In this document: positions 1,096 through 15,424 of the stretch, one piece after another
How positions within the stretch are numbered: position 1 is the stretch's first letter
Layout of the letters: the number at the start of each line of letters is the position of its first letter
Virus record (IMG/VR): IMGVR_UViG_3300046045_000002
Span: 1-40,367 of that record
DNA: 40,367 bases
Strand: one strand, 5' to 3'
Origin: a virus
Position numbers and translations under genes: made by a program
Notes under the pieces: generated by a model
Databases searched by the model: none
The model's input: the letters and a program-made list of their open reading frames with translations, nothing else
What the model was told of the DNA's origin: nothing

Positions 1096-1114
1096 CCACG
1101 TGAGCTACGTCACA

Positions 1115-1149
1115 CCCCTTGGTTACCGTACGCGCAGGTAACCAAGGGG
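1115..1149 (+). terminator. Stem-loop after the DNA polymerase gene
   Basis: Perfect 13-bp stem ccccttggttacc (1115..1127) / ggtaaccaagggg (1137..1149) with a 9-nt loop, 20 nt after the stop codon. No T-run follows. Confidence 0.5.
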
Positions 1150-1154
1150 CCCAT

Positions 1155-1177
1155 CACCTACTAGTCACTAGTAGGTG
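1155..1177. repeat. 23-bp palindrome copy 1 (cacctactag-tca-ctagtaggtg)
   Basis: Exact 10-bp arms. Intergenic, 59 nt after the polymerase stop. Confidence 0.95.
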
Positions 1178-1553: not shown

Positions 1554-1571
1554 GTAAACCCTCCCGCTCTA
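1554..1571 (+). promoter_or_regulatory. Early-gene motif copy 1 (GTAAACCCTCCCGCTCTA)
   Basis: 16 of 18 match to the GTAAACCCTTGCGCTCTA consensus. 36 nt upstream of the sigma-factor ATG. Confidence 0.55.
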
Positions 1572-1607
1572 GGGCGGGCGACAACGCGAACGAACGGAGC
1601 ACGACCC

Positions 1608-2426
1608 ATGATCGACCTCACCCCCGAGCAGATCGCCGCCGCTAAGGCGAACGACCTCGACGCCGTGACCGCTGTGGTTCAGGCCACGGAGGAAAGGGTT
1701 CAGCAGCTCGCCCGGCAGTACGCCACCACCGCTGGACGCGTGAACGCCGACCTCGCCGAGGAACTCGCGCAGATAGGCCGTATAGCCGTCTGGGAGTCCC
1801 TTAGCCGCTTCAACGGCCACGCGGTGGCCCAGTTCTTCACCTTCATAGACACGACGCTTAAGGGCGTCATGAGCGACGCTCGCAAGGTCGAGACCCGCCC
1901 GGGTGTGTCCCGCTCCGTCGCCGCCGATTTTGAGACAGCGCTCACGATGGCGGGCGGCGACCCGTACGACGCGGAGCGCGTAGCCGCTAGCCCCGCCATG
2001 GGCAAGCGCAAGATGAGCCCCGAAATGGCGTACGCCGCCCGGCTGTCGTGGCAAGGGGTCGAGTACCTCGACGCCCCGATGAACGGCGAGGGCGACGAAA
2101 CGATCACGCTCGGGGAGACGCTTGCCGATCGGGTCGGTCTTCCGGATGACCTGATCGAGGACGCCGATATCGAGTCGTTGCGCAAGCGCGAAATCCGCGA
2201 CCGGGTGCGCGGCATTGTCGGCCGCATGGGGGCACAGCGCCGGTACGTGTTGTCGGGTACCTACGGCCTCCCGTTCGCCCCGTTCTACGGCGAGGGACAC
2301 GATGCCGAAATGGCGGAAGACCTCGGGGTTCCGCGCGACCGCATCAAGACCGTTCGCAGCCTCGCTAAGACGGCATTCCGTAAGACGTGGCTTGCCGGTG
2401 CGCAGTCCGACGCCGACGCCGCCTAA
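1608..2426 (+). CDS. Sigma-70 family (ECF-like) RNA polymerase sigma factor
   Basis: 272 aa. Region-2-like IGRIAVWESLSRF and region-4 HTH-like EMAEDLGVPRDRIKTVRSLAKTAFRK. GGAG upstream of the ATG. Confidence 0.7.
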   Translation: MIDLTPEQIAAAKANDLDAVTAVVQATEERVQQLARQYATTAGRVNADLAEELAQIGRIAVWESLSRFNGHAVAQFFTFIDTTLKGVMSDARKVETRPGVSRSVAADFETALTMAGGDPYDAERVAASPAMGKRKMSPEMAYAARLSWQGVEYLDAPMNGEGDETITLGETLADRVGLPDDLIEDADIESLRKREIRDRVRGIVGRMGAQRRYVLSGTYGLPFAPFYGEGHDAEMAEDLGVPRDRIKTVRSLAKTAFRKTWLAGAQSDADAA

Positions 2427-2451
2427 TTCACCTTTCTGGGAGGGAACTGAA

Positions 2452-2661
2452 ATGCTTGCTACGCACAAGTTCGAAACCGCCTCGGGTCACACGGTCGAGG
2501 CCACGGCTACCGCAGCCGGATACGACTTCCACACGCGCAACGCGCAGGGCGAGACGATTTCGACCGTCGCCCATTCCCGCATTGCCGCTGAAATCCTGAT
2601 CGCGGAACTCTCGGCCGCGCAGCCTAAGCCCCGGGCGCGCCGTAAGGTGGCTGCAAAGTGA
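2452..2661 (+). CDS. Hypothetical protein (69 aa)
   Basis: ATG preceded by gggagggaactgaa; high GC3 in this frame. The longer upstream extension from 2215 overlaps the sigma gene. Confidence 0.6.
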   Translation: MLATHKFETASGHTVEATATAAGYDFHTRNAQGETISTVAHSRIAAEILIAELSAAQPKPRARRKVAAK

Positions 2662-2855
2662 GCCGCGCGCTTTCCTTCCTGATCGGGTTTGCCGTCGTCG
2701 CCGCTTTCGGCGTGACAGCGTGCGAGGACGGACCCGAGTGCACGCACTACGAGACGCAGACCACTTGGGCGTACGTCGTAGGACCGAAAGGCACCATGAC
2801 ACCCCACCTGATCGTGACCCAGGTCTGTACGCGCTACGCGTCGCCGACCCCGTAA
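2658..2855 (+). CDS. Small putative lipoprotein or membrane protein (65 aa)
   Basis: GTG start overlapping the previous stop. N-terminal hydrophobic signal with the lipobox-like sequence FGVTAC. Confidence 0.55.
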   Translation: MSRALSFLIGFAVVAAFGVTACEDGPECTHYETQTTWAYVVGPKGTMTPHLIVTQVCTRYASPTP

Positions 2856-2866
2856 GGCCGAGGACC

Positions 2867-2889
2867 CACCTACTAGTGACTAGTAGGTG
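2867..2889. repeat. 23-bp palindrome copy 2 (centre tga), extended to a 33-bp palindrome 2862..2894 followed by TTTTTT
   Basis: cacctactagtgactagtaggtg flanked by ggacc/ggtcc, with a T-run at 2895..2900. Looks like an intrinsic terminator. Confidence 0.95.
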
Positions 2890-2972
2890 GGTCCTTTTTT
2901 GCGTTTCATGACTCTGATCGCTTGCGAGCGGTGTTAGGCTGCCGCTACAAGCGGCAGACAGGGAGACGGAAG

Positions 2973-3536
2973 ATGATCACGAAGACCGAGCAGGGCAAGC
3001 GAGTCACCACCCCGTGGGGCGCTGGCACCGTCGAGTACCGCACTGACGGGTACGCGGGCGAGGTTGATTACTTCCTGGTCACCCTGGACGTTCCGGGCGA
3101 GTATGGCGTGACGCAGGTTCACGTGAAGCCCGAGGACATGCGGCCCGAGGTGCAGCCGGAACCGCGCACGATCCGGTTCGAGTCGACCGTGTGCGGACGC
3201 TGCAAGGGTGCCGGTCGGCGGAACGACGCCGGATGGGGCGCGAACCATCACGGAATCTGCTACCGGTGCCACGGCGCCGGGACGGTACTGACGGGCAACG
3301 GCTACCGGGCGTCACAGGCGTACAGCAAGATGCGTGATGAGCGCCTCGGCGCCACGTGGGGCGAACTCGCCGACGGCGAGGTTTTCCAGCACGACGGGAA
3401 GTACTACCGCAAGGGCGAACACGAGTGGCTGCGCCTCGCTGACGGGATCAAGGTTCACCGCCACAACGGCCCGGCAACCCGGAAGATGTGGAAGGAGATT
3501 GCCGCCCGCTACAAGGGCGCAACGCTGGCCTACTGA
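2973..3536 (+). CDS. Hypothetical protein with DnaJ-type CxxCxGxG zinc-finger repeats
   Basis: ATG preceded by gggagacggaag. Contains CGRCKGAG and CYRCHGAG. Confidence 0.6.
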   Translation: MITKTEQGKRVTTPWGAGTVEYRTDGYAGEVDYFLVTLDVPGEYGVTQVHVKPEDMRPEVQPEPRTIRFESTVCGRCKGAGRRNDAGWGANHHGICYRCHGAGTVLTGNGYRASQAYSKMRDERLGATWGELADGEVFQHDGKYYRKGEHEWLRLADGIKVHRHNGPATRKMWKEIAARYKGATLAY

Positions 3537-3549
3537 ACCGCCCGAGGGG

Positions 3550-3572
3550 CACCTACTAGTCGCTAGTAGGTG
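3550..3572. repeat. 23-bp palindrome copy 3 (centre tcg), extended by ggg/ccc (3547..3575) plus a T-rich run
   Basis: cacctactagtcgctagtaggtg followed by ccctttcttttt. Terminator-like. Confidence 0.95.
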
Positions 3573-3746
3573 CCCTTTCTTTTTAGCCCGAAAGGCTTTC
3601 TTAGCTAAACTAATCGTTCACAAGATCCTAACGTTTTACTTGATCCTTGCACCACGCACGCAGATTCGGACTACAGCGCTCCGCATACTGATGTTGACCT
3701 TTCAAATGTGCCGTTTACCGGTACCGGGGCAGTAGGGGTGCCCGTG

Positions 3747-4283
3747 ATGACTAGGACTGTGTGCGGAGTGGTAATCCCGGCTAAGTCGCCGACCGTCTGT
3801 CTCCATATCGAGGTGCCCGCAGACAGCGTGTGCACCTGTACCGGGCGGAAGTGCAAGCCTTGGGAGTGGCGGGCACTGGAGTGCCCTACAAGGCTCCCGG
3901 AGGAGTACGCCTACACCCGGCATGACCTCGACCGCGTCATGCGCTCATACGGCCACGTGTGGGCCCTCACGGCGGCGAGGCAGCGCAGCGACAACCGGTT
4001 CCGGCTGGTTGCCCGGGGGCTGTTCAGCGGGCGGGTTCTCTCCACCTACACGTGGGGGTGGAACGCCGTGTACGGCCGGTACGAACCCGAGGCCGAACCG
4101 TGGAATCTGTGGGACGAACGCGAGGCCGAGGGGAAGCGTGAGCGCATCCCTTACACGCTGTCCGGCTTCAGTCGGCTAGCCGCCGGGCTGCACCAGGACC
4201 CCGGGCCGTTCGTCCGGCACAAGGAAGACGTCCCGCACGAGCACGCATTGCCCGACTTCTACGGACTCCCGAACGCTGCCTAG
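3747..4283 (+). CDS. Hypothetical protein (178 aa, Cys-rich N-terminus)
   Basis: ATG preceded by aggggtgcccgtg. Follows a roughly 170-bp AT-richer spacer and is followed by an 11-bp-stem hairpin. Confidence 0.6.
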   Translation: MTRTVCGVVIPAKSPTVCLHIEVPADSVCTCTGRKCKPWEWRALECPTRLPEEYAYTRHDLDRVMRSYGHVWALTAARQRSDNRFRLVARGLFSGRVLSTYTWGWNAVYGRYEPEAEPWNLWDEREAEGKRERIPYTLSGFSRLAAGLHQDPGPFVRHKEDVPHEHALPDFYGLPNAA

Positions 4284-4363: not shown

Positions 4364-4657
4364 ATGGCTATCGGATATGAGTGGCGAATCATCGGGCGCG
4401 AACTCTCCGGGGGCGCATGTCCCGATGGTGACGCGGACGGCGTGGCTGGCTGCGTCGAGGACGTGGCAACGGCCATCACGGAAGCGCTGCGGTTCCATCT
4501 GCGGGACCAACGGCCGGACATCGTCGGCGCCGTCCTCACGAACATGTGGGGGCCGTTGCGGCATCGCATGCTGACGGATGGCATCACCGGATTGAAGGAT
4601 GAAAGGCGCTGGACCGGTACCGCGCCGGGTCTCTCCGTGCGACTCTGGCAGCTATGA
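4364..4657 (+). CDS. Hypothetical protein (97 aa)
   Basis: ORF with high GC3. Its stop overlaps the next start (ATGA). Confidence 0.55.
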   Translation: MAIGYEWRIIGRELSGGACPDGDADGVAGCVEDVATAITEALRFHLRDQRPDIVGAVLTNMWGPLRHRMLTDGITGLKDERRWTGTAPGLSVRLWQL

Positions 4658-4893
4658 ACACACCAGCTACACGAACGCCGTTGGAAGTCGCGCACCATGC
4701 GCGCTACCGCATCCGGAACAACCCGCTTGCCGACCGCGCACGCCCGTTCGAGATCATCGATGACCTAATGGGCGGGCACGCGTGCGCACTGCCCGACGCG
4801 AGCGGGTTCCTCAAGACGCTCACGTTCCGGAACGAGAAATCAGCCCGCGCATGGCTGGTCGAGTGCCAGCAAAGGGGGACCGCGAATGCGTGA
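4654..4893 (+). CDS. Hypothetical protein (79 aa)
   Basis: Overlaps its neighbours at both ends, consistent with translational coupling. Confidence 0.55.
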   Translation: MNTPATRTPLEVAHHARYRIRNNPLADRARPFEIIDDLMGGHACALPDASGFLKTLTFRNEKSARAWLVECQQRGTANA

Positions 4894-5194
4894 GATCAAC
4901 GACCGGTACGAGGTACAGACGGTCGGCGGCAAGTTCGTAATCCGCGACCTATGGATGCGCGCTTTCTGCTCACTCGACGGGGAGAACGTTCTCCGCTGGT
5001 CGACGTGGACGGACGCGGAGGGATGGCTCCAGCGGTGCTACCGGATTTGGGGCCACGTGCCGAATGTCGGCGACGACCCGAACGACCTGAACGCCAAAGC
5101 CCGGAACTGGGCTGAAATGCGGTCGCGCAATGCCCGGCGGTCGCCATGGGAAGGCTGGTCCGTTCCGCTGTGGGATAGCCGGTTCGGCCAATGA
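4886..5194 (+). CDS. Hypothetical protein (102 aa, Trp-rich)
   Basis: ORF with high GC3, followed by a hairpin at 5200..5228. Confidence 0.55.
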   Translation: MREINDRYEVQTVGGKFVIRDLWMRAFCSLDGENVLRWSTWTDAEGWLQRCYRIWGHVPNVGDDPNDLNAKARNWAEMRSRNARRSPWEGWSVPLWDSRFGQ

Positions 5195-5199
5195 CGTAA

Positions 5200-5228
5200 G
5201 CCCCGGAGCGCAGCTATCGCCCCGGGGC
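5200..5228 (+). terminator. Stem-loop ending the + strand accessory operon
   Basis: gccccgg (5200..5206) / ccggggc (5222..5228). Confidence 0.4.
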
Positions 5229-5244
5229 CTACGCCCTCACCTTA

Positions 5245-5274
5245 GCCCCGTCCGGCCACCACAGCGGGCGGGGC
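5245..5274 (-). terminator. Stem-loop immediately downstream of the minus-strand gene
   Basis: gccccgtccg (5245..5254) / cgggcggggc (5265..5274). 10-bp stem with one G-T pair. Confidence 0.4.
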
Positions 5275-5278
5275 ACTC

Positions 5279-5491
5279 TTATGCGTCGTCGCGCGTTGCC
5301 GGGCACCTCCACAGTGCCCAACCCTTGCCGTATGGCCGGATAGCTACGCGGTAGGCGAGGCGCAGCCGCACATACAGCGCAGCTACCTCGTGCCACCGGT
5401 TGAAAGCGTCCTCGCGCCCGAGGCTGCCGGTTATCTGAATGCTGCCCGGCGGAACGGGCGGGTTCGGGGTGTAGGGGAGTGTGGTTCTCAT
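5279..5491 (-). CDS. Hypothetical protein (70 aa); the only convincing minus-strand gene
   Basis: ATG at 5491..5489. About 75% GC3 in this frame when read by hand. The longer 107-aa version would overlap the divergent gene. Confidence 0.5.
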   Translation of the reverse strand: MRTTLPYTPNPPVPPGSIQITGSLGREDAFNRWHEVAALYVRLRLAYRVAIRPYGKGWALWRCPATRDDA

Positions 5492-5564
5492 GTCGGCCAC
5501 GCTACGGATCAAGGCGCCGTTACCGGATCGCCCGCAGGGTCGAGGCGTAGGTAACGTTCCGGGC
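5492..5564. promoter_or_regulatory. Divergent intergenic region with a 7-bp inverted repeat (cgttacc 5518..5524 / ggtaacg 5550..5556)
   Basis: 73 bp between two divergently oriented start codons. Candidate switch or operator region. Confidence 0.3.
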
Positions 5565-5942
5565 ATGGAAACGAAGCGCTGTAACGAGTGCCAGGAAGAC
5601 AAGCCCGTCGAGGCTTTCGAGGTCTACCGCAAGGGGCCGTCCGGAACGCCCTACCGCCGGGGAAGCTGCCGCACGTGTCGGCAGCCAGAGCGGACCGAGA
5701 AAGAGGCTGCACGCCGAGGCCGACAGCGCGAGCAGAACCCCGAGGGGTTCAAGGCTGCGAAAGCGTCCGAGGCCACCGCCCGCCGCAAGCGCCTACGGCT
5801 CGAACAGCTTGCCGACGTCGTCCGGCTTGTGTCGGCACAGCTTGCCGACGGCCGGTCGGTCGAGGACGTTGCCGAGGTGCTGCTAGCCGCCGACGTGCGC
5901 GTGTACGGGGACGTTTCCGCAGATCAGCGCGTACATCCATAG
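5565..5942 (+). CDS. Zinc-ribbon protein with a basic central region and a possible C-terminal HTH (125 aa)
   Basis: METKRCNECQ...CRTCRQ (CxxC...CxxC), an Arg/Lys-rich middle and LADGRSVEDVAEVL near the C-terminus. Lies directly upstream of the integrase gene. Confidence 0.55.
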   Translation: METKRCNECQEDKPVEAFEVYRKGPSGTPYRRGSCRTCRQPERTEKEAARRGRQREQNPEGFKAAKASEATARRKRLRLEQLADVVRLVSAQLADGRSVEDVAEVLLAADVRVYGDVSADQRVHP

Positions 5943-5973
5943 TCCTGGTCACTGTTCGATGACCAGGGATATG
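5938..5973. other. Candidate attP: 36-bp imperfect dyad (13 of 18 arm positions complementary)
   Basis: catagtcctggtcactgt | tcgatgaccagggatatg. Perfect 8-bp core cctggtca/tgaccagg. Directly upstream of the serine integrase gene. Confidence 0.35.
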
Positions 5974-5974
5974 G

Positions 5975-7720
5975 GTGTACGCTCGGGGCATGACACCTTC
6001 AGTCCGCGCGGCCGTCGAGGTCGCCAGCGTTCACGGGGCGGCAGACGTAGCAGCTATCTACGTTAGGCAGTCCCGCAAGAAAGCTGACGGTTCCGAGGCA
6101 TCCCCCGCCGTTCAGGTCGAGGAATCCGAGAAAAAGGCTATCGCCCTCGACCTGCGGTCGCTGCCCGTCTACTCGGACGTCGGCATTTCCGGCTACGACC
6201 CGAACGCGGAGCGCCCGGCATTCGAGCGCATGCTCAAGGATGCTGCCGCCGGTAAGTTCTCGAAAATCATCGTGTACTACATGAGCCGATTCTCTCGGCA
6301 AGAGCCGCTAGAGGTGCTCGCAGTAGTCCGCGAACTCTGGTCGTACGGAATCACCATCATTTCCGTGACCGAGGGCGAATTCCGGCCCGACGACTTCGGC
6401 AGCCTCATTCACCTCCTGGCCCGACTGGAAGGAAACCACAAAGAGAGCAAGCTGAAATCAATCAACGTCAAGAAGACGAAACAAAAGGCGCGCAACCTCG
6501 GGGGCTACATGGGCGGACCACCGCCGTACGGGTTCCACACGCGCAAGGTGCTGAAAGACGGCGTGGCCATTCAGGAACTTGTGCCCGACTGGAAGGTGCA
6601 AGCACCGATCGTGCGTGACCTAGTCGCCTACATGCTGGAGCACCGCAACGACCCGGCAGACAAGTTCGGAAAGCACCCGGCGTCAATCCTCGGCGCGTGC
6701 GAATGGCTGAACGCCCACCCGCAAGCCAAACCCCGCCGTGGCGAGACGTGGAAGGACGCGAGCGTTACCCGACTGCTCATCGACCCCCGGCTAGCCGGAT
6801 TCGCCGCCGACTACGTGTACGAGAACGCAGCCGACGAGGAACGGCGCCGGAAGACACGTGCCTACGTAATCCAGCGGGACGACGACGGGCACGAGATCAT
6901 CGGAAACGAAGCAATCGTGACCCCCGCTGACTGGTACACGCTGCAAGAACACCTGCGCAGCCGGGCGAACAAAGGCCGTGCCTCGAACGGCGAATCACTG
7001 TTCGGCGGGTCGGGATTGGTCGACTGCGAGTGCGGGAAGCTGTTCACGTTCTTTTGGGCGCGCAAGACAGACGTCAAGAACTACCGGTGCCCGCGCACCC
7101 GTGTGGACGACGTCGGCCGGACGCACGACGGCGGGAACAGCATTTCGGCGCTGCACCTCGAAGACTGGGTTGCCCGACGCATCTTCGCGCTGATCACCAC
7201 ATCGGCGGGCGACGAGGAAACGCAAGAAATCCTGCTAGAGGCGACTAGGCGCTACGGACGGCGCGTCGAGGCACCGCAGACGGCGGGCGAGCGCACAGAG
7301 CTGGTCCGCGCACGTGCGGCCGACACACAAGCGCTGAACGACCTATACGACCGCGAAGAAGCGGGCGACTACGACGACCCGATCGGCCGAAAGCGGTTCC
7401 GTGACCGCAAAGACAAGATCTTGACCCGGATCAAGGCAGCCGAAAGCCGCCTAGCCGAACTGGACACGATCGAGACACCGGCGCTACCTATCGAGCAGTG
7501 GCTACCCGAGGACGCCGACGCCGACCCGATCGGCCCGGGGTCGTGGTGGCACGGCGCAAGCCTCGACCAGCGTCGGGACATGGTGGCGCTGTTCGTAGAG
7601 CGCATCACGGTCCATAAGGCGGCAAGCAAGGGCGGCAACTACAACGGCGTGGTGTTCAACGCTGGCAGCCGCGCGGAGATTACGTGGGCGAGGCCGCACG
7701 ACGACGAGGAAGACGCCTAG
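5975..7720 (+). CDS. int: Large serine recombinase (integrase)
   Basis: 581 aa. N-terminal resolvase-type motif AAIYVRQSRKK, zinc-ribbon-like CECGK...YRCPR and a C-terminal coiled-coil-like region. The start is either GTG 5975 or ATG 5990. Confidence 0.9.
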   Translation: MYARGMTPSVRAAVEVASVHGAADVAAIYVRQSRKKADGSEASPAVQVEESEKKAIALDLRSLPVYSDVGISGYDPNAERPAFERMLKDAAAGKFSKIIVYYMSRFSRQEPLEVLAVVRELWSYGITIISVTEGEFRPDDFGSLIHLLARLEGNHKESKLKSINVKKTKQKARNLGGYMGGPPPYGFHTRKVLKDGVAIQELVPDWKVQAPIVRDLVAYMLEHRNDPADKFGKHPASILGACEWLNAHPQAKPRRGETWKDASVTRLLIDPRLAGFAADYVYENAADEERRRKTRAYVIQRDDDGHEIIGNEAIVTPADWYTLQEHLRSRANKGRASNGESLFGGSGLVDCECGKLFTFFWARKTDVKNYRCPRTRVDDVGRTHDGGNSISALHLEDWVARRIFALITTSAGDEETQEILLEATRRYGRRVEAPQTAGERTELVRARAADTQALNDLYDREEAGDYDDPIGRKRFRDRKDKILTRIKAAESRLAELDTIETPALPIEQWLPEDADADPIGPGSWWHGASLDQRRDMVALFVERITVHKAASKGGNYNGVVFNAGSRAEITWARPHDDEEDA

Positions 7721-7743
7721 ACGGCGCTGTGAGCCCCTGGACG

Positions 7744-7779
7744 GCCCCGGATGGTCCCTGCGACTGTCCGGGGCTTTTT
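7744..7779 (+). terminator. Intrinsic terminator after int
   Basis: gccccgga (7744..7751) / tccggggc (7767..7774) followed by ttttt. Confidence 0.65.
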
Positions 7780-7872
7780 CGTGCGCTCAGACGGCCGTCT
7801 GTGGCTTTGGGGTGGTCGGCATAAGCGGAGCGCGACCGTCCGGTTACCTGGGGTGGTCAGACAGCGGGGGTG

Positions 7873-7966
7873 GGATGACGAATGACGAATTTGATAGTCA
7901 TCTGTGTATCCCTTAAGAGCCTCTATAGACATACCGAGATCGTTGTTCGTTTCGTCATTCGTCATC
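7873..7966. repeat. Inverted-arm element, copy A (94 nt)
   Basis: The arm GATGACGAATGACGAA (7874..7889) is perfectly complementary to TTCGTCATTCGTCATC (7951..7966). The 27-nt core gtatcccttaagagcctctatagacat (7906..7932) is identical to the core of copy B. Confidence 0.9.
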
Positions 7967-7968
7967 AC

Positions 7969-7986
7969 GTAAACCGTTGCGCTCTA
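7969..7986 (+). promoter_or_regulatory. Early-gene motif copy 2 (GTAAACCGTTGCGCTCTA), upstream of the tRNA cluster
   Basis: 2 nt after element A and 129 nt upstream of the first tRNA. Confidence 0.55.
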
Positions 7987-8115
7987 GTAGGGAGTGAGGG
8001 AAGGTTCCCGCGCACGAATCTAAAACACTCCTCGGCGGACCGAGGACTTCCCCAAAATCCGCCCGGCGGTCGACTCCCGTGTCTCTCTCCCACGGTTTGA
8101 GCCTGCCGGGCACCT

Positions 8116-8188
8116 TGACGCGTAGCTCAGTCGGCAGAGCAAGGGATTGTTAATCCCTGGGTCGTTGGTTCGAGTCCAACCGTGTCAG
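8116..8188 (+). tRNA. tRNA-Asn (anticodon GTT)
   Basis: Cloverleaf folded by hand: acceptor tgacgcg/cgtgtca, anticodon stem aggga/tccct with loop ttGTTaa, T-arm gttgg-ttcgagt-ccaac. Confidence 0.85.
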
Positions 8189-8265
8189 CGGAGCGTACGA
8201 CGACCCCGTTTGAGGGGCTACGGGTGGCATGCACTCCCCAACCGCAGAGGCGGTTTCGTACGCAA

Positions 8266-8342
8266 CGGCATATAGCTCGAAGCGTGGTTAGAGCGCCGGT
8301 CTGATAAACCGGAGGTTCCAGGTTCGACCCCTGGTGTGCCGA
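8266..8342 (+). tRNA. tRNA-Ile (anticodon GAT)
   Basis: Acceptor cggcata/tgtgccg, anticodon stem ccggt/accgg with loop ctGATaa, T-arm ccagg-ttcgacc-cctgg. Confidence 0.85.
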
Positions 8343-8452
8343 CTGGTGGTAGCCCGTAAGGCCGTGACTGGCATGACTGGCACCACCCTGGGTGAAACCG
8401 GCCCTCACTGCCCGACTAGTCATCGGGTAAGCGGGCGGCGAGTAGCCCTCAA

Positions 8453-8529
8453 GCCGCGTTAGCCCAATCGGTAGAGGCGTCGGTCTTAGGAACCGAAGGT
8501 TAGGGGTTCGAATCCCTTACGCGGTACCA
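8453..8529 (+). tRNA. tRNA with anticodon TAG (Leu by anticodon), short 5-nt variable loop, encoded CCA
   Basis: Acceptor gccgcgt/acgcggt, anticodon stem tcggt/accga with loop ctTAGga (anticodon 8487..8489), T-arm agggg-ttcgaat-ccctt, discriminator A, 3-prime cca. Confidence 0.75.
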
Positions 8530-8530
8530 C

Positions 8531-8553
8531 GACCTACTAGTCACTAGTAGGTG
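8531..8553. repeat. 23-bp palindrome copy 4 (centre tca; first base g instead of c)
   Basis: gacctactagtcactagtaggtg, starting 2 nt after the last tRNA. Confidence 0.9.
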
Positions 8554-8572
8554 CTCATGAAAGGCGGTCCCG

Positions 8573-8833
8573 GTGGCCATTGCTACTTACCGGCGTTCCC
8601 GCCACGTTCCCGCGCATGATGCGGCTGCCCGTTGGCGCCGTGCGCTCAATCGCGCTGCCTACGTCGGTTGTAACCGATGTGGTGGCGCTTTCGCTCCGTC
8701 TGACGTCGAGGTCGACCATATTCGGCCCCTTGCCCTCGGTGGCGAGGACGTAGAGAGCAACATTCAGACCCTTTGCATTCCGTGTCACGTTGCCAAGACT
8801 CGCGAGGAATTCCAATATGCCGCAGCCGGGTGA
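8573..8833 (+). CDS. HNH endonuclease (86 aa)
   Basis: DHIRPLALGGEDVESNIQTLCIPCHVAKT. GTG start 19 nt after the palindrome. Confidence 0.8.
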   Translation: MAIATYRRSRHVPAHDAAARWRRALNRAAYVGCNRCGGAFAPSDVEVDHIRPLALGGEDVESNIQTLCIPCHVAKTREEFQYAAAG

Positions 8834-9302
8834 TTTCGGCGTAGTCCAAATCCACGGCTACGGCGGAAAGCTGATTTCTTTCGGGCAAGCCCTTATCGGC
8901 TGTCCCTCGCGTTTCTCTCACGTGTTCCTCGTTCTCGACAATGGGGAAATCGTTCAGGGCGAGCCCGGCGGAGCGAAGATTTATCCGGCGTCCGTGATGG
9001 ATGGTCGAGGCGCTGTGTACAGCAACCTGCCGCTTACCACTGAACAGCGTGCCGCAATCGTCTCTGCGGGCCGTTCGCTGGTCGGCACACCCTATTCATG
9101 GGCCGACTACGCGGCTATCGGTTTCCAGCGCCTAGGGCTGCCGTCTAAGGCACTGGCCGACTATGTGGCCGACAGTGGCCACATGATCTGTAGTCAGCTT
9201 GTGGCCGAGGCGTACGATCGCGCGGGTATTCCGCTGTTCCCTAATCGCGCGCCCGGTAATTGTGCGCCCGGTGATTTGGCGAGATTGATCGGGGCTAAGT
9301 AA
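8817..9302 (+). CDS. Papain-like (NlpC/P60 or YiiX-type) cysteine peptidase or amidase-like protein
   Basis: 161 aa. ATG preceded by gaggaattccaat. Candidate catalytic residues are SHVFLV (His) and MICSQLV (Cys). The family call is tentative. Confidence 0.45.
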   Translation: MPQPGDFGVVQIHGYGGKLISFGQALIGCPSRFSHVFLVLDNGEIVQGEPGGAKIYPASVMDGRGAVYSNLPLTTEQRAAIVSAGRSLVGTPYSWADYAAIGFQRLGLPSKALADYVADSGHMICSQLVAEAYDRAGIPLFPNRAPGNCAPGDLARLIGAK

Positions 9303-9652
9303 TGCCCCGTAGACCCTGCCTAGATTGCGGTCGTCTTACAGCCAACCCTAGCCGCTGTGATGCCCATATGGCCGTGTGGAATGCACGGGTGGAACGTCGT
9401 AGGGGTTCATCGACTGCAAGAGGCTATGGCGCTGCGTGGCGCAAGGTAGCGCGCGTGGTGCTGGATAAGCACCGTTCTACCTATGGTCACTACTGCCCAG
9501 GGTTCGAGGTTCCTCCCCATGCTGCTAGTGACCTCACTGTGGACCACATCAAGCCTCGGTCCCTCGGCGGCACCGACCAGCCGGACAACCTTCGTGTTCT
9601 CTGTCGGGCTTGCAACAGTCGCAAGCACAATCGCCCACCGGTCGCGCTGTAG
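9302..9652 (+). CDS. HNH endonuclease (116 aa)
   Basis: DHIKPRSLGGTDQPDNLRVLCRACNSRKHN. N-terminal CLDCG...C zinc ribbon. Confidence 0.85.
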   Translation: MPRRPCLDCGRLTANPSRCDAHMAVWNARVERRRGSSTARGYGAAWRKVARVVLDKHRSTYGHYCPGFEVPPHAASDLTVDHIKPRSLGGTDQPDNLRVLCRACNSRKHNRPPVAL

Positions 9653-9835
9653 GTGACGTTCCGAGGTCGCTACCTCGCTGTATCACAGAGTGTAGCTACC
9701 AATTCGGACATTATGTGCAGTAGGGGGGCATACCAAATCTCTTGCGACTACCATCTAGTGGACCCGGGCCCAGGGGAAAAACACATGGCCGCAGGTTAGG
9801 GGGTGGGGGGTCTGGCCCCGAAATCCCCGAAAAAC
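9653..9835. other. Candidate cos / packaging-recognition region
   Basis: 183-bp non-coding gap between the HNH and terS genes. G-runs tagggggg (9721..) and ttagggggtggggggtctggcccc (9796..9819). Three gctacc/actacc repeats. The ends themselves cannot be read from the sequence. Confidence 0.3.
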
Positions 9836-9858
9836 CACCTACTAGTGACTAGTAGGTG
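9836..9858. repeat. 23-bp palindrome copy 5 (centre tga)
   Basis: cacctactagtgactagtaggtg, 21 nt upstream of the terS ATG. Confidence 0.95.
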
Positions 9859-9879
9859 ACCGAAAGGGGGCGAAAACCC

Positions 9880-10347
9880 ATGTCGGGACCGCCCCCGATG
9901 CCAAACGAGCGGAAACGGAAGCTAGGTAACCCTGGGAAGCGGGCACTACCCGTCGTCGCCGAGGTCGCCGACGCTGTACCGCTCGAAAATCCCGCCCCGC
10001 TCCACCTAAAGGCCGAGGGTCGGAAGCTGTGGGAGCGCGTCACGTATGGCGCCCATTGGCTAGCCGAATCGGACACGCCCACACTCACGCTGTTGTGCGA
10101 GAAATACGACCGTCGCGCGCAATTCCTCGCCGACCTCGCCCGCACGGACGCCGTTCTTTTTACGGATAAGGGTTACGCCTATCCGAATCCGCTGGTCGGC
10201 ATGCTGTCGACTATCGAAAACGAAATCGCCCGCCTATTCAGCGCGCTGGGACTCACGCCGACCGACCGAACCCGTATGGGTGTCGCCGAGGTCAAGGCCC
10301 GGAATGCGTTCGAGGAGATGCTAGCGAGGCGACAAGAGAGGGGATAA
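9880..10347 (+). CDS. Terminase small subunit (P27-like)
   Basis: N-terminal NERKRKLGNPGKR motif. ATG preceded by aaagggggcgaaaaccc. Lies directly upstream of terL. Confidence 0.75.
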   Translation: MSGPPPMPNERKRKLGNPGKRALPVVAEVADAVPLENPAPLHLKAEGRKLWERVTYGAHWLAESDTPTLTLLCEKYDRRAQFLADLARTDAVLFTDKGYAYPNPLVGMLSTIENEIARLFSALGLTPTDRTRMGVAEVKARNAFEEMLARRQERG

Positions 10348-10350
10348 CGC

Positions 10351-11865
10351 TTGACGCACCCTCTCTACCTAACGCCCGTCGCCCCCGAGGAAATGGTGAG
10401 CGGCGACGGCCCCGACTTTAACGACTTCACGCAGTTTCTCCGGGTCACAAAGGACTCGATCGGCGGTAGTGCGGGCGAAATCCTCGTGATGCGCCCGTGG
10501 CAGATCGAGCTAATGGATAGGCTCTACGCCCGACGCGCCGACGGCCGACTAAAGCACCGCACAGCGCTCATCGGAATGCCGCGAAAGAACGGCAAGAGCG
10601 CGCTAGCTGCCGGTATTGCGCTGTTCGGCCTAGCTTTCGGCCCCCGTGGTGGCGAAGTCTTTTCCTGCGCTGGTGACAAGGAACAAGCGCGGATCGTTTT
10701 CTCGACCACTAAGCAAATGGTCGAAATGGAGCCGCAATTCGGCTCCATGTTCAAGTGTTATCGCGACGCTATCGAGTTTCCGGCGACGGGCAGCGTTTAC
10801 CGCGTCCTTTCCGCCGAGGCGTACACGAAAGAGGGTCTAAACCCGCACCTTGTCATTTTCGATGAGGTGCACGTTCAGCCCAATCGTGAACTGTGGGACG
10901 TTATGGCGCTCGCTTCGGGCGCCCGTCGTGAGCCGATGATGGTCGGCATTACCACAGCGGGGGTTAAGACCGACTCGACCGGCGGCGACAGCACGTGCTA
11001 TCAGCTCTATCAGCACGGAATGCGCGTTGCCTCGGGCGAGGTGTCCGACCCCGGGTTCTTTATGTCGTGGTGGGGTGCCCCCGAGGGTGCCGTTCACACC
11101 GACCCCGCTGTGTGGGAAGCCTCGAACCCCGGCTTTGACGACATTGTGTCGCGCGAGGATTTCGAGTCGGCCGTGTTGCGTACTCCCGAGAGTGAGTTTC
11201 GCACGAAGCGCCTCAACCAATGGGTGTCGACGGCGCAAGCGTGGCTGCCCGCTGGTACGTGGGAAGCGTGCGAGGACGCCGAGGCGACCATTCCCGACGG
11301 CACCGAGGTAGTTCTAGGGTTCGACGGGTCGTTCTCGAACGACTCGACGGCTATCACGGTCGTTAGGTGCCCGCAGGGCGAGGACGACAAGCCACACATA
11401 GACGTCGTGGCAGCGTGGGAAAAGCCCCGGGAATCGGGCAACGATTGGCGCGTTGACATTCTCGACGTCGAGGCGGAGATTCGGGCAGCCTGCCGACGCT
11501 GGCAGGTGCGAGAGATCGTGTGTGACCCCTATCGGTGGGCGCGCACGTATCAGGTTCTCGAAGACGAGGGTTTGCCGGTCGTTGAGTACCCGCAAAGCCC
11601 CGCCCGCATGGTTCCCGCCACGCAACGCTTTTTCGAGTCGGTGCTGAACAAGACCGTCACTCATTCCGGCGATCAGCGCCTAGCCCGACACCTCGCGAAC
11701 TGTGTGATCCGCACGGACTCCCGAGGCAGCCGGATCACTAAGGACGCTAAGAACTCGCCTCGGAAAATCGACCTCGCTGTCAGTGCCGTGATGGCGCTGG
11801 ACCGGGCGTGTGTCGAGCCGGAACCCGAACCAATTCCGCAGTTCTTTTCGTGGGCCGACCTATAG
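10351..11865 (+). CDS. Terminase large subunit
   Basis: 504 aa. Walker A-like GMPRKNGKS and Walker B-like LVIFDEVH. TTG start preceded by gagagggg. Confidence 0.9.
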   Translation: MTHPLYLTPVAPEEMVSGDGPDFNDFTQFLRVTKDSIGGSAGEILVMRPWQIELMDRLYARRADGRLKHRTALIGMPRKNGKSALAAGIALFGLAFGPRGGEVFSCAGDKEQARIVFSTTKQMVEMEPQFGSMFKCYRDAIEFPATGSVYRVLSAEAYTKEGLNPHLVIFDEVHVQPNRELWDVMALASGARREPMMVGITTAGVKTDSTGGDSTCYQLYQHGMRVASGEVSDPGFFMSWWGAPEGAVHTDPAVWEASNPGFDDIVSREDFESAVLRTPESEFRTKRLNQWVSTAQAWLPAGTWEACEDAEATIPDGTEVVLGFDGSFSNDSTAITVVRCPQGEDDKPHIDVVAAWEKPRESGNDWRVDILDVEAEIRAACRRWQVREIVCDPYRWARTYQVLEDEGLPVVEYPQSPARMVPATQRFFESVLNKTVTHSGDQRLARHLANCVIRTDSRGSRITKDAKNSPRKIDLAVSAVMALDRACVEPEPEPIPQFFSWADL

Positions 11866-11872
11866 GGGCGCT

Positions 11873-12070
11873 ATGGAGCAACAGAAGACGTCCCTACGGG
11901 AACGACTAAGGGGTCTACGGGCCCGAATACCGCGCAGCGCGACGGCCGACGCTTTCGACGTAAGCGGCCTCGGCTGCCTAGTCGGCGCCGCGTGGTGGTG
12001 GCAACCCATTGTCGGCCTTACTGCCCTCGGCCTCGCGCTGCTACTAGCAGGGTGGGTAACGAGTGATTAA
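11873..12070 (+). CDS. Small membrane protein (65 aa)
   Basis: C-terminal hydrophobic segments LGCLVGAAWWW and GLTALGLALLLAGW. Confidence 0.5.
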   Translation: MEQQKTSLRERLRGLRARIPRSATADAFDVSGLGCLVGAAWWWQPIVGLTALGLALLLAGWVTSD

Positions 12071-13301
12071 GCGTGCAATGCAGAAGCGCTTTTATGCGCC
12101 GTCCGGCGCCGGTGATCCGTGGGCGATTCCGACTAACGGAAGTCTGCAAGCGATCACAGCGGCGGGCGTTCAGGTCACCGACGAAACGGCAATGCAGCTA
12201 CTCGCCGTCTCGGCGTGCGTCCGCATTCTCTCGGACACGGTCGCTGGTCTGCCGTTCGACGCTGTTAAGGCTGTCGGCGAGACGCGACAGACTATCGAGC
12301 CACCGCCGGGCATTGTGTCGGACCCGTTCGGCGGTGCGAATGACAGCACGTTGCCGACACGGCGCCTAGGTGTCTCTCAGCTAATGGTTTCGCTGTTGCT
12401 GCGAGGCAATGCGTACTGCCTAGTCCTTTCCCGTGACCGGATGAACCGGCCGACCCGGCTGCGGGTTCTGCACCCGGACCGTGTCCGCTGTCAGTTCGAT
12501 GACCAGGGTAAGCGGGTGTACGAAGTCAACCGGCTGCCGGTCGACGCCGAGGACATCGTTCACATTATTGGCCTCGCCTACCCCGAGGCGCCGACCGGGA
12601 TTAGCGTGCTGTCGTACGCCCGGAACGCGATTGGCCTCGGGCTAGCCGCCGAGGAATTCGGCGCGAGATTTTTTGGCTCCGGCGCCCACATGACCGGCAT
12701 TATCGAGGTGCCCGGCGACCTCGACAAGGAACGCGCCCGAGGGCTGAAAGAGGGTTTCACCGCCTCGCACAGCGGGGTGAAGAATTCGCACTCGGTCGGC
12801 GTGCTGTCGGGTGGCGCACAGTGGAAGCCAATTTCTGTGAGCCCCGAGGACGCGCAGTTTCTCGGCACCCGCGCGGCGCAGAACCTCGACATTGCGATGT
12901 TGTTCGGAATCCCGCCGCACATGTTGGGTCAGATCGATAAGACGACCTCTTGGGGTACGGGTATCGAGCAACAGGGTTTGGCGTTCCTTACGTACACCCT
13001 CGGCCCATGGCTAGGCAGGTTCGAGGACGCGTTTAGCGCCATGCTGCCTAAGCCGCAGACGGCCCGGTTCAACGTCGACGGGCTACTTCGCACCGACGCC
13101 GCTGGACGGTACGCCGTCTATTCCGTCGCCCGGTCTGCGGGCATTCTCACGCCGAACGAGATTCGCGCCCTAGAGAACTTCCCGCCCGTTGACGGCGGCG
13201 ACAACATCGACGCCCCGCTAAACAGCAACGTCAAGCCTCTTAAGGACGCGCAAGCGGGGAAGTCGCAGCCATCTGCCGACGCACTAGGGGCGGTTCTTTA
13301 G
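12063..13301 (+). CDS. Portal protein (HK97-like)
   Basis: 412 aa, positioned between terL and the prohead protease. The start is GTG 12063 or ATG 12078. Confidence 0.85.
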   Translation: MIKRAMQKRFYAPSGAGDPWAIPTNGSLQAITAAGVQVTDETAMQLLAVSACVRILSDTVAGLPFDAVKAVGETRQTIEPPPGIVSDPFGGANDSTLPTRRLGVSQLMVSLLLRGNAYCLVLSRDRMNRPTRLRVLHPDRVRCQFDDQGKRVYEVNRLPVDAEDIVHIIGLAYPEAPTGISVLSYARNAIGLGLAAEEFGARFFGSGAHMTGIIEVPGDLDKERARGLKEGFTASHSGVKNSHSVGVLSGGAQWKPISVSPEDAQFLGTRAAQNLDIAMLFGIPPHMLGQIDKTTSWGTGIEQQGLAFLTYTLGPWLGRFEDAFSAMLPKPQTARFNVDGLLRTDAAGRYAVYSVARSAGILTPNEIRALENFPPVDGGDNIDAPLNSNVKPLKDAQAGKSQPSADALGAVL

Positions 13302-14020
13302 TGAGTGACCTATCCAGCCGCGCACAGCGGCTACACGTGGCCGAGAACCGGCAACGGCCTTTCGAGGGCATGGAATTGCGCGCCCTCGACAACGGGACCG
13401 GCGGGGAAAACCTGCGGTTCACCGGTTACGCCTCGGTGACGAACGCCCCCTATGAAATGGAAGATTTCCTAGGGGAGTACACCGAGCGAATCATGCCCGG
13501 GGCGTTCACTCGGTCCATAGCCGAGGGCGCCGACGTGCCGTTCAAGGTGAACCACAGCGGCATGACCCTTGCCCGTACGAAGTCGGGAACGATGCGCCTA
13601 GCCGAGGATTCGCGCGGGTTGCACGTCGAGGCCGACCTAGACCCGACTAACCCCGAAGTGCAGTCGCTACGCAGCGCCATGCAGCGCGGGGATATCGATG
13701 AAATGAGTTTCGCGTTCCGCGTGAACTCTCAGGTTTGGTCCCCGGATTGGTCGCAGCGCGACATTACCGAGGTCGACCTACACAAGGGGGACGTAAGCGC
13801 TGTCAACTATGGCGCAAATCCTGCTACGGCGGGTGCGGTACTGCGCTCACGTGACATTGCGCTGTTGCACGCCCGAGGCGCCATCAGCGCCGAACAGGCC
13901 GAGGCGCTCGCGCGCATGATCCGGCAGGGCGAGGACGCCCGTTCCGAGGCCGAACCCGAGGCAAAGCCCGGCGTCGACCTTTCCCTATTCGCGACGCGAC
14001 TACGCGCGCTGAATTTCTAA
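13301..14020 (+). CDS. Prohead (capsid maturation) protease, HK97 family
   Basis: 239 aa. FTGYASV...GAFTRS...KVNHSGMTLARTKSGTMRLAED pattern. Position between portal and capsid genes. Confidence 0.8.
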   Translation: MSDLSSRAQRLHVAENRQRPFEGMELRALDNGTGGENLRFTGYASVTNAPYEMEDFLGEYTERIMPGAFTRSIAEGADVPFKVNHSGMTLARTKSGTMRLAEDSRGLHVEADLDPTNPEVQSLRSAMQRGDIDEMSFAFRVNSQVWSPDWSQRDITEVDLHKGDVSAVNYGANPATAGAVLRSRDIALLHARGAISAEQAEALARMIRQGEDARSEAEPEAKPGVDLSLFATRLRALNF

Positions 14021-14022
14021 CT

Positions 14023-14045
14023 CACCTACTAGTCACTAGTAGGTG
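14023..14045. repeat. 23-bp palindrome copy 6 (centre tca)
   Basis: Starts 2 nt after the protease stop and ends 8 nt before the capsid ATG. Confidence 0.95.
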
Positions 14046-14053
14046 CTTCCCCG

Positions 14054-15415
14054 ATGGAGCACATTTTGAATAAGCGCGAAATGGTCGCCGACCTACTTGC
14101 GAAGCGTTCCGCTCTAAAGACCGAGCTTGACGGCCTTGTCGACGGCGCCACCGCCGAAAAGCGTTCTCTTTCCGAGGATGAGTCGGCCCGGTTCGACAGG
14201 GGCGAGGCGGAGATTCGGGCGTTCGATGAGCGCGTTAAGGAACTCGACTCGCAGATCAAGGCCGACGAGGCTGCGGCCGACATGGCTAAGCGCTATGCCG
14301 CGCCTCGCGTCGAGTCCGTCAAGGAACCGGAGATCTACCGTTCCGGCGTCGGTGGCCGTTCCTACTTCCGCGACCTACACCTAGCGCGAAGCAAGGGTGA
14401 CCGCGACGCTTCCGACCGGCTTGTTCGGAACAACCGGGGCCGTGCGGCCGACCTCGAACAGCGTGCTATCAGCGGCACTAATGGCGCCGGTGGAGAGTTC
14501 ATTCCGCCCCTATGGCTGGAGAACGAGTTCGTTAAGTACGCGCGTCCGGGTCGCATTACCGCGAACCTTTCGCCCTCCTTCCCGCTGCCCCCGGGTACTG
14601 ACTCGATCAACGTCCCGAAGGTTTCCGGCGGTACGGCGGTTGCTGTGCAGTCGACGCAGAACAGCGCCGTTCAGCAGACCGACCTAACCACGACCTCGAT
14701 TTCGTCCACTGTGACGACCGTTGCGGGTGGCCAGACGGTTTCCCTACAGCTGATCGAGCAGTCGCCTCTTAACATCGATGATGTTGTTCTGGCCGACCTT
14801 GCCGCCGACTATGCGCGGCAGCTCAACCTACTCGTGCTGAGTGGTTCGGGCACCTCGGGGCAGCCGACCGGCATCATGACCCTTGCGGGCACGAACGCTA
14901 TCGACTACAACCCCGCGACCGTCACCGCGCAGAACTTCTACAGCGCGGTTGCGAACGCCATTCAGACGGTTCACACGAACCGATTCCTCCCGCCGGACAC
15001 GATCATCATGCACCCGCGCCGGTGGGCGTGGCTGGTTGCTCAGGCCGACTCTTCCGGTCGTCCGCTGGTCGTTCCGCACGCCGGTGGTCCGTTCAACGCC
15101 ATGGCCGACCCGGGCGCCGTTGCCGCTCAGGGCTACGTCGGCACCATGCAGGGTCTGCCGGTCTACGTCGACGCGCTGATCCCGACCAACCTGACCGCCG
15201 ACACCGGCACCGCCGAGGATGCGGTGATTGTCGGCCGGTTCGCCGACCTCATGCTGTGGGAGTCGCACATTCGGGCCGAGGCGTTCGAGCAGACGTACTC
15301 GAACAACATGAGCGTTTTCATCCGGCTGTACAACTACATGTCGTTTCAGCCCGCCCGTTACCCGAAGTCGCTTTCTGTGATCACCGGTAAGGGTCTCCAG
15401 ACGCCGACGTTCTAA
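14054..15415 (+). CDS. Major capsid protein (HK97 fold with an N-terminal coiled-coil delta domain)
   Basis: 453 aa. Charged helical N-terminus followed by a capsid-like body. Position after the protease. Confidence 0.85.
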   Translation: MEHILNKREMVADLLAKRSALKTELDGLVDGATAEKRSLSEDESARFDRGEAEIRAFDERVKELDSQIKADEAAADMAKRYAAPRVESVKEPEIYRSGVGGRSYFRDLHLARSKGDRDASDRLVRNNRGRAADLEQRAISGTNGAGGEFIPPLWLENEFVKYARPGRITANLSPSFPLPPGTDSINVPKVSGGTAVAVQSTQNSAVQQTDLTTTSISSTVTTVAGGQTVSLQLIEQSPLNIDDVVLADLAADYARQLNLLVLSGSGTSGQPTGIMTLAGTNAIDYNPATVTAQNFYSAVANAIQTVHTNRFLPPDTIIMHPRRWAWLVAQADSSGRPLVVPHAGGPFNAMADPGAVAAQGYVGTMQGLPVYVDALIPTNLTADTGTAEDAVIVGRFADLMLWESHIRAEAFEQTYSNNMSVFIRLYNYMSFQPARYPKSLSVITGKGLQTPTF

Positions 15416-15424
15416 GCCCTTTAG

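Follow-up and report, generated by a model that had tools for sequence, protein, structure and literature searches.

The roles of phage-encoded tRNAs are debated: they may compensate for codon usage, stand in for host tRNAs that have been degraded, or allow escape from tRNA-cleaving defences. Most of the data come from large lytic phages that carry many tRNAs and in which the effects are diffuse. In T4-type and other many-tRNA phages the tRNAs match codons that are over-used in late or structural genes. The principle that links phage tRNAs to late-gene codons has been established in further phages, among them Shigella phage Sf14 (PMC12482277). A cellular system with related features is the control of TTA codons in Streptomyces by bldA, which encodes tRNA-Leu(UAA) (PMC4932002, PMC10732093). 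Here we analyse a stretch of viral DNA of 40,367 nucleotides, the IMG/VR record IMGVR_UViG_3300046045_000002 (the window, in what follows, is this whole stretch), which encodes a tRNA with the anticodon UAG (TAG in the DNA) at positions 8453-8529 on the plus strand. To judge by its Pfam matches and its synteny with phage phiC31 (NC_001978), the window is the circularly permuted genome of a phiC31-type temperate siphophage. We find that CTA, the leucine codon complementary to this anticodon, is concentrated in the late genes of the window and of its relatives that carry the same tRNA, and we consider it likely that codon use in the late genes is adapted to a set of tRNAs to which the phage tRNA-Leu(UAG) belongs, and codon use in the early genes to the pool of the host.

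Genes were called with a self-trained, non-standard codon-model caller, with which short genes and start codons are approximate. The late block was delimited by function, from the small terminase to the dNMP kinase gene and independently of the CTA pattern, which gave sets of 20 late and 31 other genes. CTA makes up 136 of the 454 leucine codons of the late genes (30.0%) but only 32 of 394 in the other genes (8.1%; odds ratio 4.8, Fisher p = 2.5e-16), and the two sets also differ when CTA is tallied gene by gene (Mann-Whitney p = 1e-6; gene-label permutation p <= 5e-5). This genome-wide tally bears out the late concentration of CTA that a first-pass annotation, made from the letters of the window, had proposed from partial hand counts. 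Counting Pfam-supported genes alone gives 56/189 in late versus 9/224 in early genes (about 4% in these core early genes), and the early/late contrast is between 4- and 7-fold, approximately, depending on the early set chosen. CTA is the commonest leucine codon of the late genes and occurs in every one of them (20/20), as against 15 of the 31 others. The hand counts themselves were reproduced for the protease gene (13301-14020, CTA at 9 of 20 leucine codons) and the sigma-like gene (1608-2426, 0 of 20), the low count reported for the exonuclease-like gene (32279-33151) agrees with our 2 of 20, and the run GAC CTA CAC CTA GCG at 14372-14386 is in frame; for the integrase gene (5975-7720), earlier put at roughly 8 of 45, we count 8 of 42. 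The CTA-rich block (9898-28586, plus strand) begins at the small terminase gene, and the three genes that adjoin the tRNAs just before it are poor in the codon (2/26).

The window thus resembles the T4-type and many-tRNA phages in several ways. Its tRNA is cognate to a codon that is used far above the level of relatives, and presumably above that of the host; this codon is concentrated in the late genes; and the late genes are those best adapted to the phage tRNA pool. It differs from them in being a small 40-kb temperate phage with three tRNAs, in that the effect resides almost entirely in one codon/tRNA pair, and in the very large size of the contrast (about 4-8% versus 30%), which is seen at a GC content of 63.5%.

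The signal is specific to one codon. CTA is by far the most divergent codon between early and late genes, the next best reaching p of about 2e-3 with the function-set boundaries. The comparison of A-ending codons used a slightly different early set, with which CTA stands at p = 3e-19 and the next codon, CGA, at p = 3e-4, while GTA, ACA, GCA, CCA, TCA, GGA, GAA and ATA show no early/late difference. The excess is also confined to the reading frame: in-frame CTA occurs 138 times in late and 28 times in early genes, whereas the other two frames hold 69 and 76 in late and 52 and 72 in early genes. Restriction to frame 0, together with the flat behaviour of the other codons, marks this as a codon-level signal and not one of composition, mutation or a DNA motif.

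These counts bear directly on the reading that the CTA excess arose outside translation, through selection on the tetranucleotide CTAG or on palindromes that contain it, through mutation bias, or through the import of a foreign late module. In its favour, CTAG is 3-10 times commoner in the window than in phiC31 (observed/expected, O/E, 0.22) and in prophage relatives (0.08-0.44), where it is depleted, a depletion that is absent from the window; an intergenic palindrome contains CTAG; and GC at third codon positions is slightly lower in late than in early genes (0.77 versus 0.81). The first-pass annotation had described CTAG as conspicuously frequent, and its local count holds, with 5 occurrences in 20461-20700 against 0.82 expected, but the description does not extend to the genome, in which 140 are observed and 134.6 expected (O/E 1.04). 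Of these 140, 82 are an in-frame CTA followed by G and 26 lie inside 13 copies of the palindrome. When the late genes are shuffled synonymously, 62.1 CTAG are expected and 71 observed, a marginal excess given the CTA usage, so that CTAG is largely explained by CTA. Among the other A-ending codons only CGA differs, and modestly; phiC31 has the same GC and no bias; and the bias is kept, with turnover of sites, in four diverged genomes. A DNA-level cause (CTAG or mutation bias) was rejected on the frame counts, the flat A-ending codons and the synonymous shuffle, and a foreign origin of the late module was rejected since CTA alone shows a strong difference and since the bias is still present in the four genomes despite site turnover. 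A non-translational origin is, in our judgement, very improbable.

About 240 related loci came out of searches with the capsid and primase proteins, and three related genomes could be rebuilt from overlapping loci, with a capsid identity to the window of 63-72%. The split recurs in all three, the CTA shares of late and early genes being 17.1/5.5%, 24.6/7.0% and 22.9/6.1% (p between 1e-7 and 3e-12), and CTA is the top-differing codon in 4/4 genomes when the window is included. A tRNA(UAG) of 74-77 nt is present in seven members of the immediate clade (the window and the loci L004, L005, L019, L038, L163 and L192), where it lies upstream of the terminase genes wherever these are covered, and it is the only tRNA shared by all seven tRNA sets. 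Within the capsid set every locus that has the tRNA(UAG) carries 16-25% CTA in its late genes; where the upstream region is covered and this tRNA is lacking, CTA amounts to at most 7%, and mostly to less than 3%, with a single outlier at 11% (L119) that is the lowest-GC locus of this latter group. For prophages of Catenulispora, Streptomyces, Streptacidiphilus and Kutzneria the CTA share of the late genes is 0.3-4.4%, and none of the prophage relatives that a genome scan turned up carries a tRNA(UAG). Unlike the window, phiC31 encodes tRNA-Thr(CGU), its only tRNA, rather than Leu(UAG), and at the same GC uses CTA at about 3% without a split (3.4% late versus 2.8% early). One member of the clade in which no tRNA was found has 6.9/5.6% CTA in late and early genes, its contig being incomplete (35.7 kb), so that the tRNA region may be missing.

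Comparison of individual sites shows that 28-39% of the CTA leucine sites of the window are also CTA in a relative, as against 14-20% of its non-CTA leucine sites. CTA sites therefore turn over between relatives while the bias persists, so that the bias is held by continuing pressure and is not just inherited. A comparable split does not accompany the other phage tRNAs: in genomes with a tRNA-Val(UAC) there is little or no late excess of GTA, and ACG is only marginally higher in the late genes of phiC31, which has tRNA-Thr(CGU), and a general effect of any phage tRNA was rejected on these grounds.

The tRNA proposed by the first-pass annotation at 8453-8529 is called by ARAGORN and matched by Rfam (64.1 bits). 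It is the last of three tRNA genes that span 8116-8529, all on the plus strand. The first is tRNA-Asn(GUU) at 8116-8189 (ARAGORN; Rfam, 67.1 bits). The second is an Ile(GAU) tRNA at 8266-8342 (Rfam, 58.9 bits), which ARAGORN missed and whose anticodon and cloverleaf were read by eye; it has an unusually long D loop of 12 nt and C1-G72 as its first pair. The tRNA(UAG) has the class I form, with a variable loop of 5 nt, the discriminator A73, an encoded CCA end and a D stem of 3 bp that closes the D loop AAUCGGUAGA, which resembles the D loop of E. coli tRNA-Leu. It contains an A15/U48 pair, in place of which L004 has G15/C48. Of the cells in an alignment of 11 members of the tRNA(UAG) family, 97.3% are paired; compensatory change is seen at 17 of 20 pairs and in every stem, and none of 500 shuffles reached the observed pairing and compensation. 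T8, A14, G18, G19 and the TTCGA T loop are invariant, and A73 is found in every member. The tRNA is structurally sound, its gene is intact, and it belongs to a conserved family.

The variable loop is 4-5 nt long in 11/11 members of this family, well below the more than 10 nt of a class II arm, whereas it is well established that bacterial tRNA-Leu normally has the long variable arm of class II (PMC2377443). The determinants recognised by leucyl-tRNA synthetase (LeuRS) include A73, the U8-A14 pair, and G18 and G19 with their T-loop partners, and in Aquifex aeolicus removal of the variable arm mainly lowered affinity (PMC2377443). All of these determinants are present in the tRNA(UAG) family, and on sequence grounds its members are predicted to be charged with leucine. 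Leucine tRNAs that lack the long variable arm thus appear to form a conserved phage family, class I tRNA-Leu(UAG).

A short variable loop might instead indicate that the tRNA carries an amino acid other than leucine and that CUA has been reassigned. Such a change has a precedent in yeast mitochondria, which read CUN as threonine, and the tRNA(UAG) lies where Streptomyces phage Shawty has its tRNA-Thr(CGU), a locus that megablast matches to positions 8359-8515 of the window. However, the D arm and A73 of the tRNA(UAG) are of the leucine type, and the proteins themselves speak against a change of meaning. Where a CTA site could be aligned with 5 or more low-CTA homologues (113 sites), leucine is the aligned residue in 50.5%, compared with 47% at CTC and 46% at CTG sites, and threonine in 3.6%; the substitution spectrum at CTA sites is like those at CTC and CTG sites. 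Since CTA sites match leucine in homologues, we rejected the reassignment of CUA, which we regard as having practically no chance of being correct.

Four cultured phages have annotated homologues of the tRNA(UAG), in the form of short (75-78 nt) tRNA-Leu(tag) genes: Streptomyces phage Immanuel3, Gordonia phage Keelan, Cronobacter phage LPCS28 and Vibrio phage V07. Their products share with that of the window a homologous D arm (UAGCCCAAU.GGYAGAGGC) and T arm, A73 and a variable loop of 4-5 nt. The genomic settings differ, in that the Immanuel3 tRNA lies within an array of 22 tRNAs in a lytic podovirus and the Cronobacter and Vibrio phages have large Straboviridae genomes. The recurrence of one class I tRNA-Leu(UAG) in unrelated phages of four host genera, which lacks the long variable arm and yet keeps the LeuRS determinants, would fit a role in defence evasion or host shut-off, in which it mainly replaces host leucine tRNAs that are cleaved or depleted during infection. 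Because of its class I shape, host nucleases that target tRNAs would then cleave it poorly, and the codon bias would be secondary. Immanuel3 (NC_048686, locus L244), an unrelated podovirus of S. griseus, offers some further support: the class I tRNA is its only leucine tRNA, and TTG, which a class I UAG tRNA should not read under established wobble rules, is absent from its late genes (0/563 versus 17/352 in early genes). Immanuel3 also has a CTA split in the same direction as that of the window, although a much weaker one (8.0% late versus 1.7% early, p = 2e-5). By itself, however, evasion predicts no bias that is both CTA-specific and late-specific; three tRNAs are far too few to replace a host set; no gene for a nuclease or for shut-off was identified in the window; and in Sf14 escape from an anticodon nuclease was examined and excluded (PMC12482277). 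We consider defence evasion or host shut-off an improbable explanation of the locus.

The surroundings of the tRNA genes bear on when they would be expressed. The first-pass annotation had placed a copy of an early-gene motif ahead of the cluster, at about 7969, and this is real: the promoter-like sequence CGTAAACCGTTGCGCTC at 7968-7984 (plus strand), some 130 nt upstream of the first tRNA, is one of 8 copies of the motif CGTAAACCnTTGCGCTC, 7 of which lie a short way ahead of a non-late gene or the tRNA cluster, and its position suggests a promoter of the early type. The other copies are at 1553, 26946, 28582, 32223, 33517, 33956 and 36945, and the genes that they precede include those for the sigma-like protein, dNMP kinase, the exonuclease-like protein, the recombination directionality factor and primase. 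The copy at 26946-26962 (CGTCAACCGTTGCGCTC) lies inside the endolysin gene, from where it may drive the holin-like genes downstream, or it may be there by chance.

Immediately upstream, an inverted-repeat element of about 95 nt (7874-7966) abuts the tRNA promoter motif. Its 16-nt arms, GATGACGAATGACGAA and TTCGTCATTCGTCATC, stand around a conserved core; the arms are perfect (GATGACGAaTGACGAa / TTCGTCATTCGTCATC) and the core reads GTATCCCTTAAGAGCCTCTATAGACAT. The element has two copies only, the second at 32119-32211, directly upstream of the motif of the exonuclease-like gene. In L163 a core variant of it, at 18054, precedes the tRNA promoter motif. Further upstream, directly after the integrase gene and thus between it and the tRNA unit, a terminator-like hairpin on the plus strand (7743-7785) was recognised by its match to the consensus, a 14-bp stem followed by TTTTT.

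On the other side, the palindrome CCTACTAGTCACTAGTAGG (8533-8555) follows the tRNA(UAG) immediately and contains two CTAG per copy. This palindrome, of about 23 nt and with the consensus CACCTACTAGTsACTAGTAGGTG, has 14 copies in early and late regions alike, nearly all of them in intergenic gaps just after stop codons (1157, 2869, 3552, 8533, 9838, 14025, 17331, 19689, 22318, 25845, 29205, 31187, 35830 and 39443). Some copies are extended by GC stems and T-runs in a terminator-like manner, and the one at 9838 directly precedes the small terminase gene, where the CTA-rich block begins. The palindromes probably correspond to the operators (CIRs) that the repressor of phiC31 binds. L163, the closest relative in the early region, has the same palindrome and the same order of motif, tRNAs and palindrome. 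A scan of 7600-10400 detected no terminator-like site between the tRNAs and the next genes, so the tRNA promoter might also feed later genes. As a whole, the arrangement is consistent with expression of the tRNA unit as part of the early class.

We favour the co-adaptation of late-gene codons and phage tRNA because this conventional reading fits all of the data. The host would supply little tRNA-Leu(UAG), as in high-GC actinomycetes, and genes whose translation takes place right after infection, or in a lysogen, when only host tRNAs can be drawn on, would avoid CUA. The phage tRNA(UAG), transcribed from the early-type promoter and charged by the host LeuRS by way of A73 and the leucine-type D arm despite its short variable loop, would then build up, and CUA would turn into a well-served codon, perhaps the best-served of the leucine codons. 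The late genes would use CUA since the phage tRNA would be available by then, and structural and lysis proteins could be translated efficiently without competing for the leucine tRNAs of the host. As a side effect, full output of late proteins would be coupled to earlier expression of the tRNA. The tRNA-Asn fits the same logic of supply and demand, asparagine making up 3.9% of late codons versus 2.2% of early codons. The window is, on this account, an unusually clean case of a known phenomenon, the matching of a phage tRNA to the codons of late genes.

Several observations weigh against this account. The integrase gene has an intermediate CTA share (8/42, or 19%), and in the four genomes this share ranges from 8 to 19%. 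Among the late genes, the capsid (21%) and tail tube (29%) genes have less CTA than those for the protease (45%), the tape measure protein (40%) and one holin-like protein (71%, 5/7); the presumably most expressed late genes are thus not the richest, which is the opposite of what selection for speed predicts. Generic compensation also leaves the special status of CUA unexplained, given the case of tRNA-Val(UAC) described above. The relatives are phylogenetically non-independent, and the co-occurrence of tRNA and bias may amount to one or two events of gain or loss. Finally, the CTA and tRNA content of the host is represented by proxies, namely the prophage relatives (0.3-4.4% CTA), phiC31 (3%) and lists of the tRNAs of Streptomyces.

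The distribution of CTA among the late genes would be less surprising if CUA had been selected to block late translation until the phage tRNA appears, as a translational gate of the bldA-like kind that the first-pass annotation had suggested, or as a safety lock. Such a block could time late synthesis, or it could silence leaky holin, endolysin or terminase transcripts in a lysogen in which the tRNA promoter is repressed. In favour of a gate, CTA is present in 20/20 late genes, and the lysis genes are among the richest (5/7 in the holin-like gene, 8/21 in the endolysin gene), while CTA is not highest in the genes that are presumably most expressed. The CTA-rich block begins exactly at the small terminase, the genes next to the tRNAs being poor in it (2/26). 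The tRNA cluster has its own early-type motif and an inverted-repeat element that it has in common with just one other promoter, and the tRNA(UAG) is the sole tRNA conserved in the clade, other phage tRNAs being unaccompanied by a codon split. CTA is also mildly enriched in the first 30 codons (69/211 versus 323/1426).

Against a gate stands first the presence of CTA in non-late genes (8% overall, 19% in the integrase gene and 9/224 in the core early genes), where the absence seen in a bldA-type system would be expected. Any block would, moreover, be leaky, since Streptomyces genomes have a gene for tRNA-Leu(UAG), one in each of six genomes (PMC4932002); the phage tRNA need not, then, be the sole decoder of CUA. 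CTA codons show neither clustering nor tandem pairs beyond chance, and clustered or tandem CTA as stall sites was rejected for this reason. The scan of 7600-10400 detected no terminator-like site that would separate the tRNAs from the downstream genes. The comparison with bldA itself is similarly divided. In common with it, the window has a rare leucine codon in temporally late genes and a dedicated cognate tRNA that is possibly limiting. Unlike bldA, its tRNA-Leu(UAG) is phage-borne and a host tRNA-Leu(UAG) probably exists, CTA also occurs in the other genes (32/394 leucine codons), and at 30% of late leucine codons it is no isolated rare codon.

A bldA-like timer is thus a plausible idea, but that CUA was selected as a gate is, we think, possible and yet unlikely. 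The physical mechanism is the same for gate and co-adaptation, and the only difference is the target of selection, the gate being the stronger claim. Its strictest version would make CUA and tRNA-Leu(UAG) a dedicated lock, in which late and lysis genes are nearly untranslatable with the host pool and are opened by the class I tRNA from a repressor-controlled early promoter, and this we hold to be somewhat more doubtful still.

Among the cultured phages the window has no close DNA relative, its DNA matches being limited to the tRNA locus, and it is with the temperate Streptomyces phage phiC31 (genus Lomovskayavirus) that its gene content compares best. Like phiC31, it has repressor c, a gp3-like factor, primase, DNA polymerase A, a gp12 sigma-like gene and a serine integrase, and it has the same gene order, including tRNA and then HNH genes just before the small terminase; the GC content is the same (63.6% in phiC31). 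Unlike phiC31, it has a capsid of another type, and its large terminase shares only 40% identity with the phiC31 protein, compared with 53% with that of Pontimonas phage phiPsal1. The nearest cultured-phage matches to the capsid are those of mycobacteriophages, at 41-45% identity. Sequence identity to phiC31 is low, and we therefore do not claim membership of the genus. The first 127 nt of the window (1-127) are an exact copy of its last 127 nt (40241-40367), so the assembly is circular and the genome comprises 40,240 bp. A Logan contig from run SRR35440317 carries the same phage.

All genes named here are on the plus strand. A CTA-poor early block, delimited with Pfam and the codon tallies, falls into two parts in the window. 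The first (28609-40367) runs from the dNMP kinase gene (Pfam; start at 28609) to the start of the DNA polymerase A gene, and holds the genes for a phiC31-type repressor c (29293-31140, PF25746; CTA 2/30 of leucine codons), the exonuclease-like protein, a gp3-like recombination directionality factor (34048, Pfam), primase/D5 (36987-39425, Pfam; CTA 3/74) and DNA polymerase A (39488 to 1095, across the junction, Pfam; CTA 2/63). The hallmark Pfam matches, taken jointly, are PF18897, PF25746 and PF00239. The second part (1-4283) completes the DNA polymerase A gene and also holds the sigma-like gene and a number of small ones. The product of the sigma-like gene matches Pfam Sigma70_r2 at 22.3 bits, under the 24-bit cut-off, and is 37% identical (BLASTP, E = 1e-23) to gp12 of phiC31, an annotated sigma factor of RNA polymerase.

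A block of intermediate CTA content in the tallies (4364-7720, 10-33% per gene) follows and ends with the serine integrase gene, which has a Resolvase domain. Between the tRNAs and the late block (8573-9652) lie an HNH gene, a gene with a weak C92-like match and a second HNH gene. The late block runs from the small terminase (9898) through the large terminase, portal, S78 protease, capsid (14054), tail tube (17578), tape measure (19730), tail proteins and GH25 endolysin (26429) to small holin-like genes that end at 28586. After the capsid gene, a plus-strand open reading frame at 15425-15949 would encode a low-complexity peptide of His, Arg and Lys, whereas the Logan gene caller places an 89-aa gene on the minus strand (15656-15925); degenerate tandem repeats occupy 15587-15905.

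The relatives carry some further peculiar tRNAs (L010 at 3142 and 3507, L019 at 4167, L064 at 4370, L038 at 3836, and L170 and L217 at 16394). Several of these are 'tRNA-???' in the ARAGORN output, with anticodons of two letters that hint at non-standard anticodon loops. One in L010 is a class I tRNA-Leu(GAG). In phiC31 (L243 in our set) CTT makes up 30-37% of leucine codons, far above the Streptomyces level, and no tRNA of the phage reads CTT directly. tRNAs with A34 also occur among the relatives, Asp-AUC (88 nt) and Asn-AUU, and recall the tRNA-Asp-AUC described in a streptomycete (PMC9262613).

Known from metagenomes only, this 40-kb temperate clade focuses on one codon and one tRNA an effect that is spread over many pairs in larger phages, and it would be a clean natural system in which to ask if late translation is limited, or its timing set, by a phage tRNA. 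If the dedicated lock were to prove true, it would time late synthesis and keep lysogens safe, and the class I tRNA-Leu(UAG) family, whose members occur in phages of both Actinobacteria and Gammaproteobacteria, could then be a device of phages in general. The family also bears on the recognition of leucine tRNAs by LeuRS and on the naming of phage tRNAs by annotation pipelines.

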